From an uncultured Gemmatimonadales bacterium (GTDB taxonomy: Bacteria > Gemmatimonadota > Gemmatimonadetes > JACCXV01 > JAHWKZ01), in assembly GCA_947259315.1 (NCBI GenBank), contig CAMYLR010000019.1, positions 1,252 through 65,251 on the forward strand: 64,000 nt of DNA, read 5' to 3'. This document shows, piece after piece, positions 757 through 14,151 of the stretch. The notes under the pieces were generated by a model. It saw nothing but the letters and a program-made list of their open reading frames with translations. It did not search any database and was not told the DNA's origin. Within the stretch, counting starts at the first letter, position 1. Every line of letters begins with the position of its first letter. Made by a program: the position numbers and the translations under genes.

Positions 757-1644
757 ATGAAGATCATCGCGAACCCGCGCGCCGGGCACGGGAGGGGCGA
801 GAAGAACGTAGCGCAGCTCGCACGCATTATCCGGCGCCGCGGCCTTGATTGCAGACCGGTCCTGACCGAACACCCCGGCCATGCCACCGAGCTGGCCCGG
901 TGCGCGGCCGAAGCGGCCGAAGCGCGCCTGGTAGTGATGGGCGGCGACGGGACGGTCGGCGAGGTTGTGGAAGGGCTAGTCGGCACCAATACCGAGTTAG
1001 CGGTAGTCTCGGTGGGGACCGGCAATGACGTGGCCCGGAGCCTTGGCCTCCCGCTCAACGACATCGAGGCTGGACTCGACCTGGCGATCAGCGGATCGGC
1101 GATCGCGATCGATGTCGGCCGCGAGCGTGATCGTCACTTCATTTCCGTGCTTGGTCTCGGGTTCCCGACGATTGTGGCCGACGCAGCGAACCGTGCGCGT
1201 TGGCTCAGAGGACCACCGGCTTTTTTTGTTTCTGTCTACAAGGGTCTGTACCGCTTGCGTCCCGTGCATCTCGTGATCGAGCTCGATGATCAAACCCTGG
1301 AGCTGGAGTCGGTCGCAGTCATGATTCAGAACACGCCCTACACCGGGGGCGGGCTCCATATGGCCCCGGGGGCGGAGATCGATGATGGCTTGCTGGATAT
1401 CGTCGTGGTTGACGACATCGGCCGACTCGACCTGATGCTCAACTTTCCGAAGGTCTATCGCGGGAAACACCTCGATCACCCTAGCTTTAAGCTCTACCAG
1501 TCCCGAACGGTGCGCATCACGTCACCGGAGCCAATGCCGAAGATGTTCGATGGCGACGTGATAGGCAGCTCACCGCTCGAGGCTTCGGTGGTACCACGAT
1601 CACTCAGGGTCGTCGTGGGCCCATCGTCATCCAACGGAGGCTGA
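757..1644 (+). CDS. Diacylglycerol-kinase catalytic-domain lipid kinase (YegS/BmrU-like)
   Basis: Contains the GGDGTV motif and DAGK_cat-like architecture (NPRAGHGRG...VVMGGDGTVGEVVEGL). It is the first gene of a plus-strand operon; the next gene starts 6 nt downstream. Confidence 0.8.
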   Translation: MKIIANPRAGHGRGEKNVAQLARIIRRRGLDCRPVLTEHPGHATELARCAAEAAEARLVVMGGDGTVGEVVEGLVGTNTELAVVSVGTGNDVARSLGLPLNDIEAGLDLAISGSAIAIDVGRERDRHFISVLGLGFPTIVADAANRARWLRGPPAFFVSVYKGLYRLRPVHLVIELDDQTLELESVAVMIQNTPYTGGGLHMAPGAEIDDGLLDIVVVDDIGRLDLMLNFPKVYRGKHLDHPSFKLYQSRTVRITSPEPMPKMFDGDVIGSSPLEASVVPRSLRVVVGPSSSNGG

Positions 1645-1649
1645 CCCGG

Positions 1650-4600
1650 GTGGACACGATCTCCGAATTCTTGCACGGTAAACAGCTGCTCGTCACAGGC
1701 GCCACCGGGTTCCTGGGTCAACCGTTGGTAGAGAAGATCCTCTGGGCAGCACCCGATGTCGAACGCATCAACGTGTTGATTCGCCCCAAGCGGAAGTTCG
1801 GCGGTCGGATTCAAACGCCCGCTGAGCGGCTGCGCCGTGAGCTGTTTCAGTCCAGCGTCTTTGATCGGCTGCGCTATCGGCACGGCGAACAACTCGAACG
1901 CTTCTTGGCTCAGAAACTCCACGCCGTAGCTGGCGACATATCGGAGGATGGCCTGGGAATCGATTCCACCGTCCGGGCTCAGCTCGAACGCGAACTCGAC
2001 GTGGTAATCAACAGCGCAGCGGTGGTCTCGTTCGACGCGCCGTTGGACGACGCCCTAGATCTGAACACGCTTGGAGCGGGACGGGTGACCGACTTCACCG
2101 CTTCTTGCCAGCGGGCTGTACTGATCCACGTTTCGACAGCCTACGTCTGCGGGGCCACAGACGAACCCGTCCCCGAGACGTTTCATCACGCCGCCGATTC
2201 CGACGAACCGTTCCCGATGCGTCAGTTTACGGATCCAGAACGCGATATAGCGCGGATCCGGGAGATCATCACTGCCGTACGCGAACAAGGCCAGGGTGCC
2301 GACGTGCGCCGTGAGCTTGTCCAAGCGCTCGTCCAACGCCGACGCGGCCGTGGTGCCGGGCGAGCTGAGCCGCGACGCGAGATGATACAGAACCTCCGCA
2401 GTCGATGGATTCAGAACCGGCTGACGGAAGAAGGCATGAAGTGGGCTCGGGAACGAGGCTGGAACGACACCTACACGTACACAAAGGCGCTCGGTGAACA
2501 GGTTGTTCTGAGACAACGCGGTGACTTGCCAGTCGCAGTCGTGCGACCGGCGATCATCGAGAGCAGCCTGGCTGAGCCCAGCCCGGGCTGGCTAGACGGA
2601 TTGCGAATGGCTGACCCGTTGATCGCGGCCATCGGAAAGGGACGGTTACGATCCCTACCGTTGAACCCCAAAGTGACGCTCGACCTCGTTCCCGCCGACA
2701 TGGTCGTCAATACGATCTTGGCGGCAATGCCGAAGTTGGCCCAGGAGCGTGGGATAGCGATTTATCAAGTGGCTACCGGGTCGCGAAACCCGGTCACGAT
2801 GGGTCGCCTTCACGATCTCATCGTGCGGTACTTCACCGCGAATCCGATGCTGGACAAGAACGACCAGCCGATCCGGGTCAAGCCGCTGACGTTCCCCGAA
2901 CCGGAACAGTTTCGGCTGATGTATCGGGCCAGGGCGGAGCCACTCAAACGAGTCGAGCGTATGCTCCGACGTTTGGTCGCCTGGGGCGTGCTCAACAAGC
3001 AAAGTCAAAAATACCGACGCCGCCTCGCTGCCCGCCTCGCAGCGATGGAGACCCTCTACTACTACGGCGAACTGTACGAGCCGTACCTGAACCTCGATTG
3101 CCAGTTCAAGATCGACAACACGATGCAGCTGCTCGAGGAGCTGACCGAGGAAGAGCGGAGTCGTTACAACTTCGATGTCACAAGGATCAACTGGCCCCAC
3201 TACATGCACGTCCACATCGCCGGGGTCAAGAAGCACATCCTGAAAGTAGAACGCGCGGGAACGCTTGAGCTCGATGACGAGGCTGCCGCCCAACGAGCGT
3301 CCATTTCGACCATCAACGACTTGTTGAGACAATCGGCCGAGAAGTTTCCCGATCGAACCGCACTGCAGATGAAGAGGGACGGCCAGTGGGTCCAGATCAC
3401 CTACGCCGACCTGAAGGAGCGATCCGAAGAAATCGGCGAGCGGTTCCGGAGGCTCGGGTTTCACAAAGGTGATCGTGTGGTCCTCTACTCGGAGAACCAA
3501 CCCGAATGGGGCCTCGCCTACATGGGGGCGGCATCGATCGGACTGGTTGTTGTCCCACTCGATGCCCAGACATGGCACCGGGAGGTGTGGTCCACGGCCA
3601 AGTTTGTAGGCGCGCAGGCTATGCTCGCCTCAGAGTCGTGCTTCGATCGCTTGGCACCTGAAGGGTTGGAACAGAACGAACGGTCCGATGCGCCGATGCT
3701 GGTGCTCAACGTTGACCACAGCTGTCGACCTTTTGACCTCGACAGCTACCCCAGAAGCACCCGTCCAGCAGAGAAAGAACCGCCGGCCTTGAACAAGGCC
3801 GATCGGGTGCGACCCGACGATCCGGCGTCGATCATCTTCACCACCGGAACTGCGGTGGATCCGCGGGGCGCAATACACACACATCGCAATTTCTTGAACA
3901 ACCTGTTCGGTGTCAGCCGAACGCTATCGGTTAGCGAGCACGACCGATTGCTTTCGGTGCTCCCCCTCTATCATGCCTTGGAGTTCACATGCGGATTCCT
4001 CACACCTATCTACCACGGTGGGACGGTCAGCTATGCACAATCTCTGAAACCCAAGGTGATTTTGGAGACGATGCGCGAGACTGGCACCACGATCATGCTT
4101 GGGGTGCCAACACTGTACGCGCTCATTCGCGACGATCTCGAGCGGCGCGTTCTGCGGGCCGGGAAATCGCCGCTACGCTCAAACTTGATGGAGACGACCA
4201 AGCAGATAAGCCGTTCATGGGAGCGAACGTTTAACCGCAACATAGGCCGTCAGATCTTCAGTCGAGTTCATCAGGAGCTGGGCGGCAGCGTACGGTTCTT
4301 CGTAAGTGGTGGGTCCGCGCTCGGTGCGGAGCTATACGACGACTATCGCGCGATGGGCCTAACGATCTACGAGGGTTACGGACTCACCGAGACGGCTCCA
4401 GTTCTGACCGTCAACCCGTTGTATCAGAGTCGTCCCGCTTCATGCGGCAAACCACTGCCGGGTATCGAACTGAGACTCTACCACACGGACAACGAAGGTG
4501 TTGGTGAGATCATCGTTCAGAGTCCCAGCTTGATGAACAGTTACTACAACAACGTCGAGGCTAGCGAACGCGTCATGGTGGACGGATGGTTCCACACAGG

Positions 4601-6053
4601 CGATCTAGGCTGGGTCGACGCTGACGGGTACCTCTACATCACGGGTCGTAAAAAAGACGTCATCGTGACGGGGGCGGGCAAGAATGTCTACCCGATGGAT
4701 CTGGAAGCTATCTACCGAGCGCTACCTTCGGTGCGGGAGATTTGTGTCGTAGGAATCCCGAGCGGCCTGACGGAGGAGGTGCACGCAATCGTCGAACCGG
4801 ACCCGGCTCTGCTGCACGATGCATCGGCGGACGAAGTCCAGAAGCTGATTCAGCGCGAGGTCCAGGCCCAGGGACGCGAGCTGCCGAGCTACCATCGGCT
4901 GCAACAGGTTCACCTCTGGGCAGGGTTGTTGCCGCGAACAAGCGACGGGCAGATCGATCGGACGCGATTGCGAGGCTGGATCGAGCGCACTGCGCGCGCG
5001 CGCGCTGATCTCGAAACACCCACGGTCGCCAGCGGACCCGGCCAACTCGAACTCAAGGCCCAACTGTACGACGAGCTCGCGCGCCTCTCGGGTCGACCAC
5101 TCGAAGAGATCACGCCAGCCACTCATCTGTACGAAGATCTGGGGCTCGATTCACTCCGGGCGATCGAGCTCTTCTTGCTCGTCGAGCATGCGATCGGCGA
5201 AACGCTAGACGACGAAGCAGCGGCGGAAGTCGAAACGGTGGAGCAGCTGTTGGCGATCGTGGCCCCGGAGAAAAAGGTGCGGGAGAAGCTGGGCGCAATG
5301 CAGCCTGAACCCGCGCTTCGCTCAACCCTGCCATATCCAGAGCGCAAGGCCGTAGACCGGTGGTTGCTCGGATCCGCCGGCCGCGGACTCGAGGCCCTGT
5401 ACACATCGTACTTCGACCTCGAGCTAGTCCACACTGATCGGTTGCCGCGAAAGCGGCCGTATCTGCTCGCCGCAAACCACTCGAGCCATCTCGATGCGCC
5501 GGCCGTGCTGTCGGCCGTTCGACTCGCGCATGGCCCAGAGGCGGCGCGGTCTATCCACGTGCTCGGTGCTCGTGACTATTTCTTTGATACGACGCTGAAG
5601 GGTTGGTTCTTCAGCACGTTTCTGAACGTCGTGCCGATCGAGCGCGAAGAGACATCGTTGGCTGGGCTCAGAACCGTCAAGTCGATTCTCACGAGTGGTG
5701 AGTCGGCGCTGATCTTTCCCGAGGGGACCCGTTCGCGGAGCGGCGAAATCCAAGCGTTCAAGCCGGGTTTGGGACTGATCGCGTGGGAGCTTAGGACGCC
5801 CATAGTGCCGGTCTACATATCCGGAACGCACGACGCGTTGCCCGTCGGCCGAAACCTACCCCGCAGGCAACGGGTCAGGATCGAGTTTGGCTATCCAATA
5901 ACGATGGACGCGTACGATAAAGTCAGGGATCGGCTTCCGAATAACCGGCTCTACCGCGAGATTGCCGCTGACGTGCGGAATACGATCGTGAGCATGTCGG
6001 ATGGCCAACCAGATCCCGACAGCGGTAATGGCGCTGGTGGTCGAGCCGAATGA
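1650..6053 (+). CDS. ElbD-like multifunctional lipid enzyme: fatty acyl-CoA reductase (NAD_binding_4 + FAR C-terminal domain) - AMP-dependent fatty acyl ligase - ACP (PP-binding) - 1-acyl-glycerol-3-phosphate-type acyltransferase (PlsC)
   Basis: The 1467-aa ORF is uninterrupted. The N-terminus has LVTGATGFLGQPLVEKIL (Rossmann of male-sterility/FAR reductases). The middle has FTTGTAVDPRGAIHTHRNF, YEGYGLTETAPV and GWFHTGDLGWVDADGYLYITGRKKDVIV (AMP-binding core motifs). Next comes LYEDLGLDSLRAIELFLLVE (phosphopantetheine-attachment Ser). The C-terminus has LLAANHSSHLD (HX4D) and FPEGTRSRSGE (PlsC motifs). Confidence 0.85.
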   Translation: MDTISEFLHGKQLLVTGATGFLGQPLVEKILWAAPDVERINVLIRPKRKFGGRIQTPAERLRRELFQSSVFDRLRYRHGEQLERFLAQKLHAVAGDISEDGLGIDSTVRAQLERELDVVINSAAVVSFDAPLDDALDLNTLGAGRVTDFTASCQRAVLIHVSTAYVCGATDEPVPETFHHAADSDEPFPMRQFTDPERDIARIREIITAVREQGQGADVRRELVQALVQRRRGRGAGRAEPRREMIQNLRSRWIQNRLTEEGMKWARERGWNDTYTYTKALGEQVVLRQRGDLPVAVVRPAIIESSLAEPSPGWLDGLRMADPLIAAIGKGRLRSLPLNPKVTLDLVPADMVVNTILAAMPKLAQERGIAIYQVATGSRNPVTMGRLHDLIVRYFTANPMLDKNDQPIRVKPLTFPEPEQFRLMYRARAEPLKRVERMLRRLVAWGVLNKQSQKYRRRLAARLAAMETLYYYGELYEPYLNLDCQFKIDNTMQLLEELTEEERSRYNFDVTRINWPHYMHVHIAGVKKHILKVERAGTLELDDEAAAQRASISTINDLLRQSAEKFPDRTALQMKRDGQWVQITYADLKERSEEIGERFRRLGFHKGDRVVLYSENQPEWGLAYMGAASIGLVVVPLDAQTWHREVWSTAKFVGAQAMLASESCFDRLAPEGLEQNERSDAPMLVLNVDHSCRPFDLDSYPRSTRPAEKEPPALNKADRVRPDDPASIIFTTGTAVDPRGAIHTHRNFLNNLFGVSRTLSVSEHDRLLSVLPLYHALEFTCGFLTPIYHGGTVSYAQSLKPKVILETMRETGTTIMLGVPTLYALIRDDLERRVLRAGKSPLRSNLMETTKQISRSWERTFNRNIGRQIFSRVHQELGGSVRFFVSGGSALGAELYDDYRAMGLTIYEGYGLTETAPVLTVNPLYQSRPASCGKPLPGIELRLYHTDNEGVGEIIVQSPSLMNSYYNNVEASERVMVDGWFHTGDLGWVDADGYLYITGRKKDVIVTGAGKNVYPMDLEAIYRALPSVREICVVGIPSGLTEEVHAIVEPDPALLHDASADEVQKLIQREVQAQGRELPSYHRLQQVHLWAGLLPRTSDGQIDRTRLRGWIERTARARADLETPTVASGPGQLELKAQLYDELARLSGRPLEEITPATHLYEDLGLDSLRAIELFLLVEHAIGETLDDEAAAEVETVEQLLAIVAPEKKVREKLGAMQPEPALRSTLPYPERKAVDRWLLGSAGRGLEALYTSYFDLELVHTDRLPRKRPYLLAANHSSHLDAPAVLSAVRLAHGPEAARSIHVLGARDYFFDTTLKGWFFSTFLNVVPIEREETSLAGLRTVKSILTSGESALIFPEGTRSRSGEIQAFKPGLGLIAWELRTPIVPVYISGTHDALPVGRNLPRRQRVRIEFGYPITMDAYDKVRDRLPNNRLYREIAADVRNTIVSMSDGQPDPDSGNGAGGRAE

Positions 6054-6748
6054 GGCAGAAAGGAGCTTTTTTTGACGTCGATGGTACCCTGGTCGCGAGC
6101 AACATCGTTCGCTATGGCGTCGAGATCCGGACGAGCGGCATGGGGCCCGGTCAGCGAAAGCTCTGGACAGCGGCGTTTCTGCCGCGAATCCCTTACTACC
6201 TAGCACTCGACAGCTTTAGCCGAAAAGCGTTCCAGCGAGCGTTCTATCGCACCTACCGGTCTGTGTCCCCGGAAGAATTGCGGCAGCGCGCTGAGGAGCT
6301 GTTCGAGCATCACATTCGCCCGCGCCTTCTTCCGGCCGCAGTCGCGAGAGTCGCCGAACACCGCGATCGAGGCGATCATGTAGTCTTGGTCTCTGGCTCG
6401 TTGGAGGAGATCGTTCAACCGGTGGCCGCGCACTTGGAAGTCGACAACATCATTGCCGTTCGGCTGCGTATAAGCGATGGTGCTCACACCGGTGAACTCG
6501 AGGGAGAACCCCTCGCCGGCGAGACAAAAGCGGATGCGGTTTCAGAATACGCGGCCGAGAACCGAATCTCGCTCTCGCGATCGTCGGCGTACGCAGACAG
6601 CCTGGATGACGTGCCAATGCTTGAAACGGTCGGCCGGCCCGCAGTGGTCAATCCTGGGCGTCGTCTGCTTCAGACTGCCCGTGCCCGCGGCTGGGGGGTG
6701 TACGTGTGGGATAGCACCATTCCTGGAACCGCACCCCAGGTTCGCTGA
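6050..6748 (+). CDS. HAD-superfamily hydrolase (HAD-IB / phosphoserine-phosphatase-like)
   Basis: N-terminal FFDVDGTLV (DxDGT motif I). It overlaps the upstream megasynthase stop by 4 nt, indicating translational coupling. Confidence 0.7.
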   Translation: MRQKGAFFDVDGTLVASNIVRYGVEIRTSGMGPGQRKLWTAAFLPRIPYYLALDSFSRKAFQRAFYRTYRSVSPEELRQRAEELFEHHIRPRLLPAAVARVAEHRDRGDHVVLVSGSLEEIVQPVAAHLEVDNIIAVRLRISDGAHTGELEGEPLAGETKADAVSEYAAENRISLSRSSAYADSLDDVPMLETVGRPAVVNPGRRLLQTARARGWGVYVWDSTIPGTAPQVR

Positions 6749-6756
6749 TCGAGACC

Positions 6757-7977
6757 GTGCTGGCACTCGAGTACGTCCGCAGTGTGCCCCGGTTTCTGGC
6801 CACCCGGGCTCTCGGTCGACGCCGACCGGGGATCGGAACCTCGAAGCTCGGCGTAGTGCGCCTAACCGAAGTCGAGCCACCTCCGCTGCCAAGCCCCGAG
6901 TGGACGCGAGTAAGACCGATCTTGAGCGGGATCTGTGGGTCTGATCTGGCCACGATCTCGGCCCAGGGCAGCCCGTATTTCTCACCGCTGACCTCGACCC
7001 CGTTTGTTTTTGGACACGAGGTCGTCGGTGTCGTTGATGAAACCGGCGAGAACGTGACCTCCGTGCGAACCGGCGACCGCGTCTGTCTCGCGCCTCCGCT
7101 TCACTGCGCGATTCGTGGCATCGAAGATCTTTGCGCTGCATGTCGCGACGGCGACCTCGGCCACTGTCGCAACGTCACCCGCGGAGTGATTGGGGCCGGT
7201 ATCCAGACCGGGTACTGCCGTGATACAGGCGGCGGCTGGAGCCAGGGGTTCGTGGCCCACCAGTCGCAGCTGCACCGGGTCCCCGAGGGGTTATCCGACG
7301 CTGGGGCGGTGCTGGTCGAGCCGCTCGCCTGCTGTCTGAGCTCGGTTCAACAAGCACCGCTCGACGAAAACGATACCGTCGTCGTATTCGGCTGTGGGAC
7401 GATCGGCGTGCTCACGATTGCGGCGCTGCGATACGTGGGACCCAGTTGTCGTGTGATAGCGGTCGCCAAGTACCCCTACCAAGCGGATGTCGCGCGCCGT
7501 CTCGGGGCCGACCTCGTGGTGTCGACCGGCAGTGGAATGCGCGACCGCTTGGCGCGTGCGATCGGAGCGGAGCTCTTGCAGCCGGAGATAGGCCCACCGG
7601 TGGCGATCGGAGGTGCTGCGGTCGTCTTTGACTGCGTAGGCTCGGGGATCACGATCGACGACGCGATGCGCTTTACCCAAGCCAGAGGCGCCGTTATCGT
7701 GGTCGGCATGCCTGGCGTACCTCGTGGAATCGATTGGACGGCGATGTGGCACAAGGAGCTCGAAGTGCGCGGCAGCTACACGGCTGACGCAAACACCTTT
7801 GATCGGACGCTGTCACTCGCTACCGAACTAGACGACCAGCTCGCACCACTGGTTGGCGCCCGCTTTTCGCTCACCGACTACCGTGAGGCGATTCAGTGTG
7901 CGCTCGAGGCAGGCCGCCGCGGCGTCTCCAAGGTCGCCTTCGAGATCCACGACTCGACCGAGTCACTCGCGGGATGA
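6757..7977 (+). CDS. Zn-dependent alcohol dehydrogenase, MDR family (threonine/sorbitol/polyol dehydrogenase-like)
   Basis: GICGSDL and GHEVVGVVDE zinc-ligand motifs plus a GxGxxG (FGCGTIG) Rossmann. The true start is probably internal, around 6850 (KLGVVRLTEVEPP resembles the usual MKAVVL N-terminus). Confidence 0.75.
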   Translation: MLALEYVRSVPRFLATRALGRRRPGIGTSKLGVVRLTEVEPPPLPSPEWTRVRPILSGICGSDLATISAQGSPYFSPLTSTPFVFGHEVVGVVDETGENVTSVRTGDRVCLAPPLHCAIRGIEDLCAACRDGDLGHCRNVTRGVIGAGIQTGYCRDTGGGWSQGFVAHQSQLHRVPEGLSDAGAVLVEPLACCLSSVQQAPLDENDTVVVFGCGTIGVLTIAALRYVGPSCRVIAVAKYPYQADVARRLGADLVVSTGSGMRDRLARAIGAELLQPEIGPPVAIGGAAVVFDCVGSGITIDDAMRFTQARGAVIVVGMPGVPRGIDWTAMWHKELEVRGSYTADANTFDRTLSLATELDDQLAPLVGARFSLTDYREAIQCALEAGRRGVSKVAFEIHDSTESLAG

Positions 7978-9524
7978 AGTACCTGACCTACTCGGGAAAC
8001 ACGCTGCTGGGAGCTGATCTGCCCGATCGAGCTACCGTTCTCTACCCGCCGCCAAAGATCGCGGGCATTCCCAAGCGCGGCATTCCGCGTGCCCTGAGGG
8101 AAGCACTGGAGGAGCCTGTCGGCATGGAGCCGCTGGCCGAACTCGTTGGGCCAAGCTCACGGGTGTTGATCGCTTTCGACGACAACTGCCAACCGTTCCC
8201 GTTGATGGCGCAGCCGGATATCCGGCAGATCATGATCACACGCCTGCTCGAGCTACTCGAAGATCAAGGCGTGAAGGAAGAGAACGTCCAACTGCGCTGC
8301 GCGGTCGCACTGCACCGCAAGATGCAGCATCACGAGTTGGTACACATGCTGGGCGAAAAGATCATGGCCCGGTTTTGGCCTGATCAACTGATGAACTTCG
8401 ATGCCGAAGATGCGGACGATATCGTCGCGCTAGGTGAGACCGACGAGGGAGAGCCTGTAGAAACGAGCCGGGCGGTAATCGAAAGCGATCTCGTCATTTA
8501 CGTCGACACCGTCCAGATCCCGCTAAACGGGGGTCACAAGTCAGTAGCCGTCGGGTTCGGTACGTACAACTCGATCGCTCCCCATCACGCACCACAAATG
8601 ACCGAGCACACGCCACACGTGATGCAACCCGACGGCTCTTGCATGCACGCGACGATACGCCGCATGAGCGAGGTTATTCAGAAACACTGTCGAATCATGG
8701 TCATCGAAGCTGCGATGAACGGAGCCACCTATCCCCAACATCTCGAGTACCTGAGCAAGTCGCCGGATCGATTGAGTTTCGCCGAACGGCTCCTGCGAAA
8801 GACAGCCCCGATGTCCATGCGGGCATTGCCAGAGCCAGCGCGAGCCAAGGTTTTTCGCGGTATACGATCCAAGTACGCGCCTATGGCGATCACCGCTGGG
8901 GCGATCGACGACGTTCATCAAGTCACGTTGGATGCACTACGACCTCAACTGGAAGTTGCGGTCGATCGGCAGTTCGACACGTTGGTCTTTGGGTTACCCG
9001 ACCTCTCACCGTACGCGATCGATGCCCGCATCAACCCCGTGCTCGTCGTCAGCGATGTCCTCGGCTACGTGTTCAACTGGTTTTGGAATCGGCCATTTAT
9101 CAAACCGGGCGGTGCGGTGATCATCTTGAACCCGGTGTTCGAGGTGTTTCACGATCGATATCACGTTGCGTACCAGCGGTTCTGGGAGGAAGTATTGCCC
9201 GCCACAACCGACCCGTTCACGATGCAAGCCGAGTTTCAAGAGTCGTTTGCGCGCGATCCCGAGTTGATCGATTGCTACCGGCATCGATTTGCTCACCACG
9301 GCTTCCATCCATTCACGGTGTGGTACTGGGCGACCTACCCACTCAAGTACTTATCCGAGACGATACTTGTGGGACCCCCGGATGATCGCGCGGCCCGGCG
9401 ATTGGGCGTATCATGGGCGCCCAACCTGGATCATGCGCTGGCACACGCGAAGGAGGTCACCGGCGGTGACGATGTGGTTGCGCTTACGATCCCGCCATTC
9501 ATGTACTTGAGCGTAACCGGCTGA
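7974..9524 (+). CDS. LarA-family protein (lactate racemase-like, DUF2088; putative nickel-pincer-nucleotide-dependent racemase/epimerase)
   Basis: The N-terminus (LYPPPKIAGIPKRGIPRALREALEEPVGMEPLAELVGPSSRVLIAFDDNCQPFP) follows the LarA N-terminal pattern (LYP...A.REAL..P.G..PL.EL.....V.I..DD.TRP.P). The start ATG at 7974 overlaps the ADH stop (ATGA). LarA is about 100 aa shorter. Confidence 0.5.
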   Translation: MKYLTYSGNTLLGADLPDRATVLYPPPKIAGIPKRGIPRALREALEEPVGMEPLAELVGPSSRVLIAFDDNCQPFPLMAQPDIRQIMITRLLELLEDQGVKEENVQLRCAVALHRKMQHHELVHMLGEKIMARFWPDQLMNFDAEDADDIVALGETDEGEPVETSRAVIESDLVIYVDTVQIPLNGGHKSVAVGFGTYNSIAPHHAPQMTEHTPHVMQPDGSCMHATIRRMSEVIQKHCRIMVIEAAMNGATYPQHLEYLSKSPDRLSFAERLLRKTAPMSMRALPEPARAKVFRGIRSKYAPMAITAGAIDDVHQVTLDALRPQLEVAVDRQFDTLVFGLPDLSPYAIDARINPVLVVSDVLGYVFNWFWNRPFIKPGGAVIILNPVFEVFHDRYHVAYQRFWEEVLPATTDPFTMQAEFQESFARDPELIDCYRHRFAHHGFHPFTVWYWATYPLKYLSETILVGPPDDRAARRLGVSWAPNLDHALAHAKEVTGGDDVVALTIPPFMYLSVTG

Positions 9525-9531
9525 AGAACAC

Positions 9532-10209
9532 GTGACTCAACACGGCGTTCGGCTCTATTTCGATTTCATCTCCCCGTACTCTTACCTAGCGCTATCTCAA
9601 GCCAAAATGTTTGGCGAACGGTACGCAATCGAGTGGGAGATACGGCCGATCCTGTACGCCGCGATACTGGAAGCCACCGGGTTGGTGGGTCCAGCCGAGC
9701 AACCGATCAAACGGCGTTACACGGCGCACGATATCATCCGCGCGGCGGACCGATTGGGTGTCCCCTTGGTCGGTCCTCCGGCCCATCCATTCAACCCCTT
9801 GATGGCCCTCCGAACAACTTGCCTCCACCAAGATCATCCGCGTAGCGTCGAGCTAGCCGTCGAGCTGGCCACCCTCTGTTGGGGTCAGGGACGACCGCTG
9901 ACAGAGTACGAAGTGCTCGAGCAAGCCCTTCAAGCGACCGCGCTCGAGACACCCGATCTAGCTGACCAGATCACCGCGCCGAGCACCAAGGCTTTGCTCA
10001 AGCAGAACACGGCGCAGGCACTCGCCGCGGGTGTGTTCGGTGTGCCGACCTTTCTGTGGCAGGGGGAGGTCTTCTGGGGTCACGACCGCATGGACCATTT
10101 GGCGGACCGACTCGCCGGCAGGCTCGATTCACCCGCAACCCGCGCCCAAGCCTGGGCCGCTAAGCCGCGCGAAGCCGAGCGACCGAGCTCCCCTTGGCCA
10201 AAGTCCTAA
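9532..10209 (+). CDS. DsbA-like thioredoxin-fold protein, 2-hydroxychromene-2-carboxylate isomerase family
   Basis: YFDFISPYSYLA N-terminus and ...GVFGVPTFLW... typical of the HCCA isomerase / DsbA-like family. There is no CxxC motif. Confidence 0.6.
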   Translation: MTQHGVRLYFDFISPYSYLALSQAKMFGERYAIEWEIRPILYAAILEATGLVGPAEQPIKRRYTAHDIIRAADRLGVPLVGPPAHPFNPLMALRTTCLHQDHPRSVELAVELATLCWGQGRPLTEYEVLEQALQATALETPDLADQITAPSTKALLKQNTAQALAAGVFGVPTFLWQGEVFWGHDRMDHLADRLAGRLDSPATRAQAWAAKPREAERPSSPWPKS

Positions 10210-11336
10210 TCGTAGCCGGCGAGCCTTCGGGCGACGCCATTGGCGCCGAACTCGTCGACGCGGCGCGCAAAGTGGCCCCGGCGATTGAGTTCTTCGGCGC
10301 GGTGGGTCCAGGTCTCGAAAGCGCGGGAGCGGAGCGTGTCGTCGAGACTCGCGAGCTCACCGCCCTGGGCCTGACCGAGGTCCTGCCCCGCTTGCCAGCG
10401 ATTCGTCGGGCGATGAAGCGATTAGAGCGAGCGGCCAAGGAAAACCGCGCGATCGGCGCCGTGCTCATCGATTCACCCGATTTCAACTTGCGCCTAGCCC
10501 GGAAGCTCGATCGACGAACGATCCCGGTCGTTCAGTACGTCAGTCCAACCGTTTGGGGCTGGCGTCCGGGACGCGTCTCTGCGATCGAGAGAAGCGTGCG
10601 TCGAGTGTTGCTCACGTTGCCGTTTGAGGCCGAGTTCTATCGTGATTCCCGCGTCGACGCCGTCTACGTGGGTCACCCGGCTTTGGATCGCATCCCAAAG
10701 GATCTCGGTGACCGCGATCTGATCGCCAAACGACTCGGCTTAGACGCGTCGCTTCGCTGGGTGGCCCTCTTGCCGGGCAGCCGAACGGGCGAACTCGACC
10801 GGATGGGTCCGCTGCTGGCACAGAGCGCCGCCTGCATTCGGCAACGAATCCCAGACATCGAGCTCTTGGCGATGGTCGCACCGGGGCTCGACTCTTCGGC
10901 GGTCGCCTCCTCCCTCGCCGGGGTCGCGGGGCTGAAACTCATCGATACGGACCGCCACGTCGCATTAGGTCATTGCGATGCGGCGATCGCTAGTTCGGGA
11001 ACCGTGTCTCTAGAGCTGGCGATGCTCGGCGTCCCACACGTGGTGGCTTACCGGCTCTCTAGTGTCACGTTCGCGATCGCCAGGCGTATGGCCAGGGTGC
11101 GCTGGATCGCGCTGCCCAACCTGATCGCCGGTCGAGCGATCGTTCCCGAGCTGATTCAACGCGACGCCGAGCCGCACCGGCTGGCGCAACCGGTGATCGA
11201 ATGGCTCGAAGATGACCGCGCGCGTGCGGCGATCAGGGCAGAGTTGCGAAACGTATCTCAGGCCCTTGGTCCGCCCGGCGTCGCCGAACGCGCGGCCAGA
11301 GCTGCGCTCTCCGTCTTTGGTGTTCCCGTCGAGTGA
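10194..11336 (+). CDS. lpxB: Lipid-A-disaccharide synthase
   Basis: MAKVLIVAGEPSGDAIGAELV, VLIDSPDFNLRLARKL, VQYVSPTVWGWRPGR, LLPGSRTGE, ALPNLIAGR: collinear with E. coli LpxB motifs. Confidence 0.85.
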   Translation: MAKVLIVAGEPSGDAIGAELVDAARKVAPAIEFFGAVGPGLESAGAERVVETRELTALGLTEVLPRLPAIRRAMKRLERAAKENRAIGAVLIDSPDFNLRLARKLDRRTIPVVQYVSPTVWGWRPGRVSAIERSVRRVLLTLPFEAEFYRDSRVDAVYVGHPALDRIPKDLGDRDLIAKRLGLDASLRWVALLPGSRTGELDRMGPLLAQSAACIRQRIPDIELLAMVAPGLDSSAVASSLAGVAGLKLIDTDRHVALGHCDAAIASSGTVSLELAMLGVPHVVAYRLSSVTFAIARRMARVRWIALPNLIAGRAIVPELIQRDAEPHRLAQPVIEWLEDDRARAAIRAELRNVSQALGPPGVAERAARAALSVFGVPVE

Positions 11337-11441
11337 TTCTCGTCGCCGCTCAGCGCAACCGTTTGACTTGCATTGGAGCGGTAACGATTATTCGTTCACG
11401 GTACGCTCCATCACCGATCCCAAACGTAGCGAGGCGATAGC

Positions 11442-11876
11442 ATGGCTGGCGGAACCTTGGTTTCTACGCTGAGCCGGCTCTTCTGCGGTCTAGCGTTCGT
11501 TTTTCACGGCGCCCCAAAGGTCTTTAACCTCGAGGCCACGTCGGGCTTCTTCGAGAGCGTCGGATTTCCATCCTGGTTGGCGATCCCGGTCGCCGGGCTC
11601 GAGTTCTTCGGCGGGATATTCCTGCTAGTGGGGTTTCTCACCCGTTGGTTATCCGTGCTCTTCATCCTGGAGATGGTTGTAGCGATCGTGGCCGTCCACC
11701 TGCCAAATGGGTGGAACGTTTTTGAGGGCGGCTACGAGTACAGTCTCGCATTGATCGTCATGCTGATCGGTGTCATCGTGCTCGGTCCCGGCTCATTCTC
11801 GATCGACGGACAGCTCCGGAAGAGTCGCGAGGGGGCTACCTCACCTGAACCCGACCCACCCAGCCTGGAGACGTGA
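11442..11876 (+). CDS. DoxX family membrane protein
   Basis: About 140 aa with four predicted TM helices and a DoxX-like pattern (FVFHGAPKVFN...FFGGIFLLVGFLTRW). Confidence 0.7.
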   Translation: MAGGTLVSTLSRLFCGLAFVFHGAPKVFNLEATSGFFESVGFPSWLAIPVAGLEFFGGIFLLVGFLTRWLSVLFILEMVVAIVAVHLPNGWNVFEGGYEYSLALIVMLIGVIVLGPGSFSIDGQLRKSREGATSPEPDPPSLET

Positions 11877-13426
11877 GCCCGGCGGCAACCTTCCTCTCAG
11901 CGGCGCCCGAGGTCCGGCTGGCAAAAGCGTTCGAAGCGCCGTTCGCCAACTTTCTCGCCACGGCGCGAACGTGCTACAGCTCCAAGGGCATCATCCCCGA
12001 CGTCGAAATCAACGATCGGTGGATCGGGCTGGCCAGGAGTCTGTACCAGGCCGGGCACCACACCACCCTGCAGCATGCTCAGTTTCAATTCTCCCTCGCC
12101 AATGTCAGCCGCCATTTTATCTGGAGCTTTCTCCACAGTCATCCGTTCTACAACAGCGAGCAGGTGAGTCAGCGCTACGTCGAGGTGAAGCCGGGAAACG
12201 TCGTGATCCCGCCGTTGCAGAGCGAAGCCCTGGCGAGATATCAATCGACGGTGGGGCGGCAAATGAAGGAGTACCGCGAGCTGATCGAGCTGTTGACGCC
12301 GGTGACCGAGGATGCCTATTACGAGCGCTTCCCAGGCCGAAGATCGAACGCTGAGAAGTACGCCAAAGAGATCCAGAAACGAGCGCAGGAGATCGCTCGA
12401 TACGTGTTGCCGATCGGCACGTTCGCATACCTGTATCACACCGTCAGTGGTATCACACTGTTGCGCTACGCAAGGCTGTGCGAGCAAGTCGACACGACGG
12501 CGGAGACAAGGCTAGTCGTCAAGGCGATGGTGGACGCGTTGTTGGAATACGATCCCGCCTACGAGACGATCCTGGAGGAATCGCTGCCGTTGGATTCCAC
12601 TCCTGAACACAGCTTCCTGAGCGCGCGCAACGGCGATGGCGAGCGACGGCGCACGTTCCGTAGGGAATTCGATCGTCAGCTGGATGGCAGATTGTCGCAG
12701 CTGGTCGACTACGGGGCTCGCAACGAACAGGTGCTGGCTGACGCTGTGCGTGAGGTGCTGGGCGAACCCAAAGCCGCGCTCTCCGATGACGAGGCGATCG
12801 GCCTGGCGCTCGATTCACGGCTCAACCCGTTACTCGGCGAAGCACTCAATCTGACCACACACGCCAAGCTCACACGGGCCCTTTATCACCCCCATTACAC
12901 GTTTCGGAAACGGCTCTCGCACGCCGGTGACTCACAAGACCAACGGCATCGAATGACACCTGGCTCGCGGCCAGCGCTTACCGCGCACATCACCCGTGAA
13001 CCGGACTACCTCGTTCCACGGTTGGTACTTGAGGACGCGCGTGTCGAAACAGCGTACCGACAGAGCATGGAGCGCACTTGGGAAGACATCGACGCCGTGC
13101 GGGCGGCTGGCGCCCCGGCAGAGTTCGCCGAATACCTTCTGCCGAACGCGGTCGCCATCCGGTTCACCGAGTCGGCGGACCTGCTGAACTTGTTCCACAA
13201 GCACACGATGCGTCTGTGTTACAATGCGCAGGAGGAGATTTGGCAGGCATCGCTCGAAGAGGCGCAACAAGTCACCGCAGTCAACCCGCGAATCGGGCGC
13301 CATCTACTACCACCCTGCACGGTCCGCTTTCACGCCGGTCAACGACCGATCTGCCCCGAAGGGACACGCTTCTGCGGCGAGCGGGTCTGGAAGCTCGATG
13401 TGGACGCGTTTACCCGCCGTATCTGA
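11873..13426 (+). CDS. Divergent ThyX-fold (flavin-dependent thymidylate synthase-like) protein with a large internal insertion
   Basis: N-terminal half: AGHHTTLQHAQFQFSLANVSRHFIWSFLHSHPFYNSEQVSQRY aligns with ThyX HGHETPFEH..FTF......ARQWFRHRIASYNELSGRY. C-terminal: LLNLFHKHTMRLCYNAQEEIWQ aligns with ThyX FLNLRADSHAQWEIQ. The protein is 517 aa versus ~220-250 for ThyX. The start overlaps the DoxX stop. Confidence 0.5.
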   Translation: MSPAATFLSAAPEVRLAKAFEAPFANFLATARTCYSSKGIIPDVEINDRWIGLARSLYQAGHHTTLQHAQFQFSLANVSRHFIWSFLHSHPFYNSEQVSQRYVEVKPGNVVIPPLQSEALARYQSTVGRQMKEYRELIELLTPVTEDAYYERFPGRRSNAEKYAKEIQKRAQEIARYVLPIGTFAYLYHTVSGITLLRYARLCEQVDTTAETRLVVKAMVDALLEYDPAYETILEESLPLDSTPEHSFLSARNGDGERRRTFRREFDRQLDGRLSQLVDYGARNEQVLADAVREVLGEPKAALSDDEAIGLALDSRLNPLLGEALNLTTHAKLTRALYHPHYTFRKRLSHAGDSQDQRHRMTPGSRPALTAHITREPDYLVPRLVLEDARVETAYRQSMERTWEDIDAVRAAGAPAEFAEYLLPNAVAIRFTESADLLNLFHKHTMRLCYNAQEEIWQASLEEAQQVTAVNPRIGRHLLPPCTVRFHAGQRPICPEGTRFCGERVWKLDVDAFTRRI

Positions 13427-13494
13427 TCACCGCTAGGAATAGAGCGGTTCGAACCGTTCGTCGAAGCCAGGGGTAATCTGCACGAGGAGGGCGC

Positions 13495-14151
13495 GTGCAA
13501 CCTGACATCAACACATGGTGGGGACGGCCTTTCAGGCTCGCCGTACTGGCGGCGGCCGCGATCCACGTAGTGGCACTGCTGACGCTTTCGATCCCGGGGT
13601 CCAAGACGTACGACGATCGGCTCGCCGATAGCGAATTGCTTCTCGTTCCAATGGTCGTGAGTCAGCCTCGTCAGACAGCCCCGGAACCCCCGGTACAACA
13701 ACTCGACGATGAGGTTCCGCCAGAGACTCCGGCAGTGCAAATCGACATCGAGATCCCCCAACCCGCGATGTCGCCAGCAGCACCGTTGACCAGAACGATT
13801 CCGCCGACAACGCTAAACGCCCTTACTGAGCCGACCCAATCGCTGATCGTCAAGCCAGCCGGAATCGGGCGCCGGACGTCCCCCATCGACGCCAAGATGT
13901 TGGCGATAGCCCGAGCCGAGTCCCTCCTCACCTCACGGTTGGCTTCATTGCCCGGAGCAGGCGCTCCGAAACCGAAGCGGCCGATCGACCTGGCCGAGGA
14001 GGGCGGCGTGACGGTCGTGATCCCATGGTCGGGGTTCCTCCCTGCGGATCGATACGACGAAGTCTGGCGCGCGGACCGCTGCCGCAACACGGACCGCGAC
14101 GATGACACCGACAAACCGGGCGAAGCCGCGGCTCGTCGGGCGCAGTGCTGA
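13495..14151 (+). CDS. Hypothetical membrane-anchored proline-rich protein
   Basis: N-terminal TM helix (LAVLAAAAIHVVALLTLSI) followed by a Pro/Glu-rich linker (PEPPVQQLDDEVPPETPAVQ). No confident family assignment. Confidence 0.3.
   Translation: MQPDINTWWGRPFRLAVLAAAAIHVVALLTLSIPGSKTYDDRLADSELLLVPMVVSQPRQTAPEPPVQQLDDEVPPETPAVQIDIEIPQPAMSPAAPLTRTIPPTTLNALTEPTQSLIVKPAGIGRRTSPIDAKMLAIARAESLLTSRLASLPGAGAPKPKRPIDLAEEGGVTVVIPWSGFLPADRYDEVWRADRCRNTDRDDDTDKPGEAAARRAQC

Follow-up and report, generated by a model that had tools for sequence, protein, structure and literature searches.

Does a bacterial lipid gene cluster employ the nickel-pincer nucleotide (NPN), and if so, for which step? The question is raised by a gene at positions 7974-9524 of a 64,000-nucleotide stretch of DNA from an uncultured Gemmatimonadales bacterium (contig CAMYLR010000019.1 of assembly GCA_947259315.1; the whole stretch is called the window below). 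The gene encodes a homologue of the lactate racemase LarA and lies beside an ElbD-like megasynthase gene; an earlier note, made from the sequence alone, suggested that it is a 2-hydroxy-acid racemase or epimerase serving a glycerolipid pathway. Our analysis revealed that the product is a genuine LarA-superfamily protein and that its association with the ElbD-type lipid module is genuine and recurs in several phyla. As to its role, we consider it probable that the protein acts on a glycerol-backbone intermediate of the ElbD pathway, in a redox-neutral step that depends on NPN.

7974..9524, + strand: LarA homologue of the ElbC type, long-form and single-histidine, 516 aa (Pfam Lar_N, NF052592, AlphaFold2, Foldseek)

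The open reading frame (ORF) and its coordinates were as first described. Pfam PF09861 (Lar_N) matched residues 38-211 with 119.3 bits against a cut-off of 23.3 (E 1.6e-34). The best curated family was NF052592, the NPN-dependent hydroxyacid isomerase family of LarAH14/15/16, which was matched end to end (residues 4-514 on model positions 13-519 of 520) with 514.7 bits, below its cut-off of 740. An AlphaFold2 model of the protein (pLDDT 81, pTM 0.86) was used for Foldseek searches; the top matches were 9q3k and 9q3j, both NPN-bound single-His LarA homologues (TM 0.76/0.81), and the top 17 matches were all LarA-family chains with the two-domain LarA fold. Query-normalised TM values against canonical LarA, Mar2 and LarAIp ranged between 0.56 and 0.63, and in profile alignments the C-terminal domain could be aligned by sequence with the LarASp type only, not with canonical LarA. 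The Lar_N score, together with the top structural matches, bore out the proposed family membership when the protein was checked by hidden Markov model for a different family. The protein is also longer than lactate racemase, as had been noted; the excess, estimated earlier at about 100 aa, amounts to 83-91 aa over the LarA chains in the PDB (425-433 residues).

In a family tree built from representatives clustered at 50% identity, the window clade forms a tight, short-branched group inside a long-form superclade that lacks the His174 loop. Most members of this superclade share the signature D-x-H-[H/W]-K-H-Y-N-H at window positions 70, 73, 114, 188, 189, 205, 347, 354 and 445; the window clade carries it in full, with Gln at position 73, and has invariant motifs of its own (FDDNCQPFP, VQIPLNGGHKS and HHGFHPFT). 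Clade members P0008, P0076 and P0121 scored 506-526 bits against NF052592, compared with 832 and 821 bits for P0127 and P0128. The window clade is a distinct subfamily within a known kind of LarA homologue (LarAH), and because it falls below the NCBIfam cut-off, genomes label it only as 'lactate racemase domain-containing'. In many other long-form branches (P0122, P0144, P0150, P0153, P0181 and others), the length and the fold motifs are kept, but the tethering Lys, the catalytic His or the Ni-binding His is missing; like Desguin et al.'s group 16, such branches probably consist of pseudoenzymes.

Which parts of the LarA active site are kept was judged from pairwise alignments to 9q2u and 6d6z and from a profile alignment to Lactiplantibacillus plantarum LarA (5huq), with invariance assessed over 15 clade sequences from several phyla. 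The motifs concerned are the following.

8175..8201, + strand: FDDNCQPFP; D70 corresponds to LarA Asp72, which binds the cofactor ribose, and Q73 lies at the Arg75 position
8307..8321, + strand: ALHRK; H114 corresponds to the catalytic His108 of LarA and to His115 of LarASp and is invariant in the clade
8499..8543, + strand: YVDTVQIPLNGGHKS; the shortened His174 loop, without His, followed by K189 (in GGHK), which corresponds to Lys184, the covalent cofactor tether
8580..8591, + strand: PHHA; H205 corresponds to the Ni-coordinating His200 of LarA and to His211 of LarASp and is invariant
9000..9038, + strand: DLSPYAIDARINP; Y347 corresponds to LarASp Tyr307 and N354 lies at the LarA Lys298 position (mapped by hand)
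9276..9317, + strand: YRHRFAHHGFHPFT; H445 corresponds to the LarASp ligand-site His401, in an invariant His-rich C-terminal pocket

The N-terminal LarA pattern described earlier is largely right, and its Asp is kept; the stretch given as 'DD.TRP', however, reads FDDNCQPFP, with Cys-Gln in place of Thr-Arg, and all nine of its residues are invariant. The Gln, Q73, replaces Arg75, which contacts both the cofactor phosphate and the substrate carboxylate. The tethering Lys is present: K189 aligns with K184 of 5huq and K195 of 9q2u and is invariant in the clade. Of the two catalytic His residues expected in a racemase, H114 is retained, and no His was found at the second position (His174) in residues 176-187 (YVDTVQIPLNGG). 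Compared with 6d6z and 9q2u, 3-4 residues are missing from the His174 loop, a deletion common to the whole long-form group of representatives. The counterpart of H205 in LarASp, His211, has been named as a Ni ligand (PMC12611868). At the Lys298 position the window protein appears to have N354, as placed through group-14-like representatives and the signature table of Desguin et al. 2020; the substrate site of canonical LarA (Lys298, Tyr294 and Gln295) lies in the C-terminal domain, which gave no direct sequence alignment. The LarASp ligand-site residues His115, His306, Tyr307 and His401 correspond, by hand mapping, to H114, P346, Y347 and H445. Invariant His and Arg residues that may line the pocket above the cofactor are H215, H225, R352, H393, H397, R436, H441, H442 and H445. 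As read from these alignments, the cofactor-holding half of the active site is intact, and the racemase base and the acid-binding residues are gone.

The genes that precede the LarA homologue in the window form a lipid module.

757..1644, + strand: YegS/DAGK-type lipid kinase (Pfam DAGK_cat, YegS_C; TIGR00147)
1650..6053, + strand: ElbD-like megasynthase, 1467 aa (Pfam NAD_binding_4, Sterile, AMP-binding, PP-binding, Acyltransferase)
6050..6748, + strand: HAD-IB phosphatase, counterpart of ElbB (Pfam HAD 1.3e-39, TIGR01490)
6757..7977, + strand: Zn-dependent medium-chain alcohol dehydrogenase (Zn-ADH), 406 aa (Pfam ADH_N, ADH_zinc_N)

The module genes lie on the same strand and are overlapping or closely spaced, the start of the HAD phosphatase gene overlapping the ElbD stop. 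The ElbD-like protein is composed of fatty-acyl reductase, acyl-AMP ligase, carrier and PlsC-type acyltransferase domains. In the Zn-ADH the GICGSD and GHE zinc motifs are intact, and its nearest solved proteins are polyol or secondary-alcohol dehydrogenases. As described earlier, the LarA homologue starts on the ADH stop codon: its ATG (7974-7976) overlaps the TGA of the Zn-ADH (7975-7977) as ATGA, and the two genes are translationally coupled. This start was preferred over a GTG at 7896, which would give a longer ORF and was rejected, because homologues share the N-terminus MKYLTYSGN that begins at ATG 7974 (15 homologues, from six phyla). The predicted complex of ADH and LarA homologue had a score of 0.00 in both runs, a result that counts neither way.

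A scan for relatives, with one genome per species, revealed close relatives (62-96% identity) in 278 genomes of Gemmatimonadota, Acidobacteriota, Latescibacterota, Eisenbacteria, Phycisphaerae and Poribacteria. The full DAGK-ElbD-HAD-ADH-LarAH module is present in the window's Gemmatimonadota clade, in a metagenome-assembled genome (MAG) of Acidobacteria (L059) and in L084, and a split module in L054, L058, L076 and partly L062 (Latescibacterota or Eisenbacteria). The ADH gene immediately precedes that of the LarA homologue in Gemmatimonadota, Acidobacteriota, Latescibacterota, Eisenbacteria, Poribacteria and a metagenome contig (L106); in a Poribacteria locus (L079) this pair alone was kept. 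The L106 contig (8868-16439), whose LarA homologue P0128 passes the NF052592 cut-off, carries ADH, LarAH, DAGK, a fatty-acyl reductase (FAR)-acyltransferase fusion, HAD and PlsY. Within Gemmatimonadota, the ElbD reductase region was found in 5 of 251 genomes, exactly those with a long-form LarA homologue above 400 bits; the five represent two lineages rather than five independent events, and the fifth (G098) has a divergent LarA homologue (34% identity) directly upstream of ElbD. Where the LarA homologue is unlinked, full-length ElbD was found elsewhere in four of the five genomes checked, as DAGK-ElbD-HAD-ADH in one, ElbD-HAD-ADH in two and ElbD-HAD in one; in the fifth, a Bryobacteraceae genome, the ElbD matches were weak and split. 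No other protein of the module is as well conserved as the LarA homologue: in one and the same set of distant genomes its identity is 64-69%, and that of ElbD is 35-57%, of HAD 40-51% and of ADH 52-57%. The window clade extends the ElbD-type module to Gemmatimonadota and at least five other phyla.

The split and unlinked loci differ in organization. In L054 (2434-12602), the acyl-AMP ligase (588 aa), the reductase (546 aa), a 664-aa protein, HAD, ADH, LarA homologue and DAGK are separate genes; the last ~150 residues of the 664-aa protein have a weak acyltransferase match (E 0.0011), and no family was matched by its first ~450 residues. In L106 the ADH overlaps the LarA homologue by 4 nt, and the 791-aa FAR-acyltransferase has no ligase or carrier domains. 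A recurring set of approximately 17 MAG loci (Latescibacterota, Gemmatimonadota or unclassified) has a sugar-acid-like set of RraA-like, GFO/IDH/MocA, Zn-ADH and enolase-superfamily neighbours. In these loci (L036, L044, L045 and ~14 similar ones, ~9000-13700; MAGs of ~3-4 Mb), the LarA homologue is 68-69% identical to that of the window and stands alone, with an RraA-like gene bearing a twin-arginine translocation (TAT) signal on one side; the other side has a GFO/IDH/MocA oxidoreductase gene in convergent orientation and a second Zn-ADH, which is distant, and Ldh_2 and an enolase-superfamily gene are nearby; in the one genome of this type that was checked, ElbD-HAD-ADH lies ~2 Mb from the LarA homologue. 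Other unlinked contexts are housekeeping genes in Acidobacteriota and MarR with an AAA ATPase in Poribacteria, and the P0356 locus has unrelated neighbours; the contigs with P0127 and P0125 were too short to show a context.

The association with an ElbD-type module, proposed from this one locus, is therefore found across phyla; it is not new, since it was already contained in Table S1 of Desguin et al. 2020 for LarAH groups 14-16. According to that table, the context of group 14 includes AGPAT (88%), a HAD-type phosphatase (88%), COG1063 (88%) and thioester reductase (50%); that of group 15 includes HAD (100%), long-chain acyl-CoA synthetase (75%) and two COG0451 genes, i.e., short-chain dehydrogenases/reductases (SDRs), per locus; and that of group 16 includes AGPAT and HAD. 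In the same dataset MXAN_1529 was placed in group 15, and the elbA-E ether-lipid operon of Myxococcus xanthus corresponds to MXAN_1531 to MXAN_1527; therefore MXAN_1529 is ElbC. Based on gene context and family group, the gene at 7974-9524 appears to be the functional counterpart of ElbC, the one gene of the elb cluster with no assigned role. In the lipid literature ElbC is a protein whose function is not known, and in the nickel-enzyme literature its group is listed under 'unknown function', with the lipid-gene context in the supplement. Our literature searches found no paper that joins LarA-family or nickel-pincer work with that on ether lipids and plasmalogens, and a 2022 review was the only paper found to name both ElbC and ElbD. 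In myxobacteria, alkyl and vinyl ether lipids are made aerobically mainly through the ElbD pathway. Similar pathways are suspected in Acidobacteriota, Poribacteria and further organisms whose ether lipids matter to the study of sediments and sponges, and the LarA homologue is a testable candidate for an unsolved step of the ElbD pathway.

An NPN-dependent enzyme requires the cofactor, which depends on larB, larC and larE. The source assembly (2.4 Mb, 33 contigs, 95.8% complete, with the window on contig 19) contains exactly one Lar_N gene, that at 7974-9524. The cofactor genes lie outside the window, as had been noted, and the search through the rest of the genome recovered all three intact.

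contig 4, 172665-173777: larC (431 bits, above its curated cut-off, open frame)
contig 4, 184338-184958: larB (280 bits, above its curated cut-off, open frame)
contig 6, 302221-302994: larE (327 bits, above its curated cut-off, open frame)

Furthermore, larC was present in 10 of 10 genomes outside Gemmatimonadota that bear the window clade and in all four genomes of the window's own family. At least 126 of the sampled Gemmatimonadota genomes have LarC and lack a LarA-type user. Because LarC is far commoner than Lar_N in the phylum, this points to other nickel-pincer client enzymes in Gemmatimonadota. Aldo-keto-reductase-type NPN enzymes, described in 2026, are one candidate for such users; the source genome encodes three aldo-keto reductases, none of them on the contigs with lar genes.

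We infer cofactor loading, substrate and reaction from the retained residues and the gene context. In the step that we consider probable, the LarA homologue would act together with the ElbD-like megasynthase, which would carry out fatty acid activation, reduction and acyl transfer, and with the HAD phosphatase, the Zn-ADH and the lipid kinase to produce 1-O-alkyl glycerolipids. The nickel-pincer cofactor would be tethered to K189 and ligated by H205, and H114 would deprotonate a secondary hydroxyl of a non-carboxylate substrate while hydride passes to the cofactor; the most plausible site is the C2-OH of an intermediate derived from glycerol phosphate. Return of the hydride to the same or a neighbouring carbon would give a redox-neutral isomerisation or activation rather than a stereo-inversion, and the lipid kinase would re-phosphorylate the product. 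If the enzyme does use the cofactor on a lipid precursor, this would widen the known nickel-pincer chemistry and predict that bacterial ether-lipid production depends on nickel.

Within this role, a more specific reaction is suggested by a comparison with the eukaryotic ether-lipid pathway, for which the module offers the following candidates.

Fatty-acyl reductase: reductase domain of ElbD
GNPAT/AGPAT: acyltransferase domain of ElbD
Alkyl-dihydroxyacetone-phosphate reductase: Zn-ADH (the SDR ElbE in myxobacteria)
Phosphatase step: HAD phosphatase
AGPS: unmatched in the module, leaving the LarA homologue

No AGPS orthologue was found in the source genome, in a search of ether pathways that covered AGPS, the anaerobic PlsA/PlsR and Ger-type systems lying outside it. 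The best FAD-oxidase_C protein of the genome is glycolate-oxidase-like and was rejected as AGPS, as it scored 357 bits to glycolate oxidase and 91 to AGPS. We therefore put forward, tentatively and as a rather unlikely refinement, that the ElbD pathway forms its ether bond by means of the ElbC-type LarA homologue, independently of AGPS. In such a reaction, the fatty aldehyde from the ElbD reductase domain and the sn-1 hydroxyl of glycerol-3-phosphate would form a hemiacetal; the cofactor would take hydride from C2-H while H114 deprotonates the C2-OH, and after loss of water it would give the hydride to C1' of the chain. The product would be 1-O-alkyl-dihydroxyacetone phosphate, to be reduced by the coupled Zn-ADH. 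By an alternative route, a transient oxidation of 1-acyl-glycerol-3-phosphate might permit an AGPS-like exchange of acyl for alkyl. Purified ElbD yielded no detectable fatty alcohol, which would fit an aldehyde product. If true, either route would put the nickel-pincer cofactor to a C-O bond-forming, non-isomerase use for the first time, and bacterial ether lipids would require nickel.

Several observations weigh against an NPN-dependent step in the ElbD pathway. Q73 replaces an Arg that contacts the cofactor phosphate, and cofactor binding could be altered as a result. Several sister branches that have lost the Lys or the His look like pseudoenzymes, so the fold can persist without catalysis. 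The only long-form relative that has been assayed is LarAH14 from Frankia, which showed no activity with any of the 2-hydroxy acids offered (PMC7583248). In many genomes the gene adjoins unrelated or sugar-acid-type genes, and no larB, larC or larE was found within 10 kb of it in ~90 loci of the clade and its relatives (tblastn with the genome's own LarB, LarC and LarE). Moreover, LarC was detected in 155 of 251 Gemmatimonadota genomes (151 of 247 without four that are flagged as unpublished, G057, G097, G157 and G182) and Lar_N in 29 of 251; because LarC is common in the phylum with or without a LarA homologue, the presence of larBCE is permissive, not diagnostic.

Among the other explanations, the one that survives best, although we consider it improbable, is a general phospho-sugar or polyol isomerase of central metabolism that is linked to ElbD only through a shared precursor such as triose phosphate. 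It draws on LarASp and LarABw, whose genes have glycolytic neighbours and which retain a ligand resembling a phospho-sugar through purification, on the ~17 loci with RraA-like and associated neighbours, and on the identity of 62-69% across phyla, which is unusually high and would fit a common metabolite. However, a housekeeping isomerase would have to be reconciled with the exact coincidence of ElbD and the LarA type in 5 of 251 Gemmatimonadota genomes, with the full-length ElbD in four of the five genomes with an unlinked copy (the fifth having split, weak matches), and with the recurrence of the ADH/HAD/ElbD adjacency in at least five phyla.

The stereo-inverting role favoured in the earlier note has a still smaller chance in our estimate. 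Such an enzyme would epimerise C2 of glycerol phosphate or of a hydroxylated lipid (e.g., sn-glycerol-3-phosphate to sn-glycerol-1-phosphate) or racemise a 2-hydroxy acid of the pathway. Every LarA-family enzyme characterised so far is a racemase or an epimerase (PMC7583248, PMC11770544), the nearest family is called 'hydroxyacid isomerase' by NCBIfam, and H114 and the cofactor residues are intact. Against this, the second base that would protonate the opposite face is absent and its loop deleted, which conflicts with simple stereo-inversion, and the carboxylate-binding Arg75 is replaced by Gln and Lys298 apparently by Asn. In addition, no activity of LarAH14 was seen with the acids tried, and lactate racemase activity is lacking in LarASp, the nearest relative with a solved structure. 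With the second His, Arg75 and apparently Lys298 lost, a 2-hydroxy-acid racemase or epimerase activity is unlikely.

Very doubtful, too, is a non-catalytic or NPN-independent scaffold or substrate-binding subunit of the ElbD machinery with nothing but the LarA fold, to which the loss of the Lys/His signature in many long-form branches, the exclusion of group 16 by Desguin et al. as probably not NPN-dependent, the replacement of the cofactor-phosphate contact by Q73 and the lack of a linked lar biosynthesis gene would be congenial, but against which stand the invariance of D70, H114, K189, H205 and the His-rich C-terminal pocket over several phyla and the universal presence of LarC in the 10 genomes checked and the four of the window's own family.

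The LarA homologue had been regarded as the last gene of the operon, which is doubtful in view of the sequence downstream.

9532..10209, + strand: DsbA-like thioredoxin-fold ORF, probably co-transcribed (Pfam DSBA 1e-29)

Only 7 nt separate the stop of the LarA homologue from the start of the DsbA-like ORF, lpxB overlaps the latter by 16 nt (both within window 9532-11336), and a terminator scan found no terminator-like site between the LarA homologue, the DsbA-like ORF and lpxB; overall, the promoter and terminator scan gave counts no higher than in shuffled sequence. The DsbA-like/lpxB tail is also present in the closest relatives (L009-L012 and L019). Because of the short spacer, the overlap, the lack of a terminator-like site and the retention of the tail, the LarA homologue is probably not the end of its transcription unit. 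In 15 Gemmatimonadota loci the LarA homologue is followed by a DsbA-like gene, with nothing in between in the nearest relatives, and this gene may be part of the lipid module there. Further downstream (11873-13426), the window encodes a ThyX-family protein of 517 aa, over twice as long as the models of that family (191 positions for Thy1 and 211 for TIGR02170); the Thy1 model was matched in two stretches.

The system can be compared with several known ones. In animals and in a minor route of M. xanthus, the ether bond is made by the flavoenzyme AGPS, which would resemble the LarA homologue in pathway position only, by the process of elimination given above; fold and cofactor are unrelated. With the lactate racemase of L. 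plantarum (5huq) and the characterised LarAHs, the window protein shares the Lar_N domain, the cofactor-binding residues and the two-domain fold; unlike LarA, it lacks His174, Arg75 and apparently Lys298, is 83 aa longer than 5huq and has a C-terminal domain that cannot be aligned with it by sequence. LarASp and LarABw (9q2u/9q3k and 9q3j; group 17, Gatreddi et al. 2025) match the window protein best in both sequence and structure and have in common with it the Lys tether, the Ni-binding His, one catalytic His, Tyr307 (Y347) and His401 (H445). In these proteins the loop is present, and Asn takes the place of His174, whereas the loop of the window protein is deleted: N185 of LarASp (9q2u) falls at I182, beside an alignment gap, and the invariant Asn of group 17 is not found there. 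They also have Lys at the Arg75 position where the window protein has Gln, LarASp has His306 in place of P346, their gene context is glycolytic and not lipid-related, and identity is only ~20-22%.

The long-form relatives offer a further comparison. Unlike the NF052592 members P0127 and P0128, the window clade lies under the family cut-off, on its separate tight branch. LarAH group 14 (Frankia, Rubrobacter) has the same set of AGPAT, HAD, COG1063 Zn-ADH and thioester reductase and the same residue signature, D-x-H-(deletion)-K-H...N. Compared with ElbC and its group 15, the window protein has Gln, instead of Val or Leu, in place of Arg75; its identity to representatives scoring above the NF052592 cut-off is only 33-37% (MXAN_1529 itself is not in this alignment); its partner is a Zn-dependent medium-chain dehydrogenase, unlike the two SDR-type proteins, ElbA and ElbE, of Myxococcus. 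In common with ElbC, it is a long-form protein in which the His174 loop is absent and Asp72, His108, Lys184 and His200 are kept, and its gene stands, as that of ElbC does, beside a HAD phosphatase and an ElbD megasynthase.

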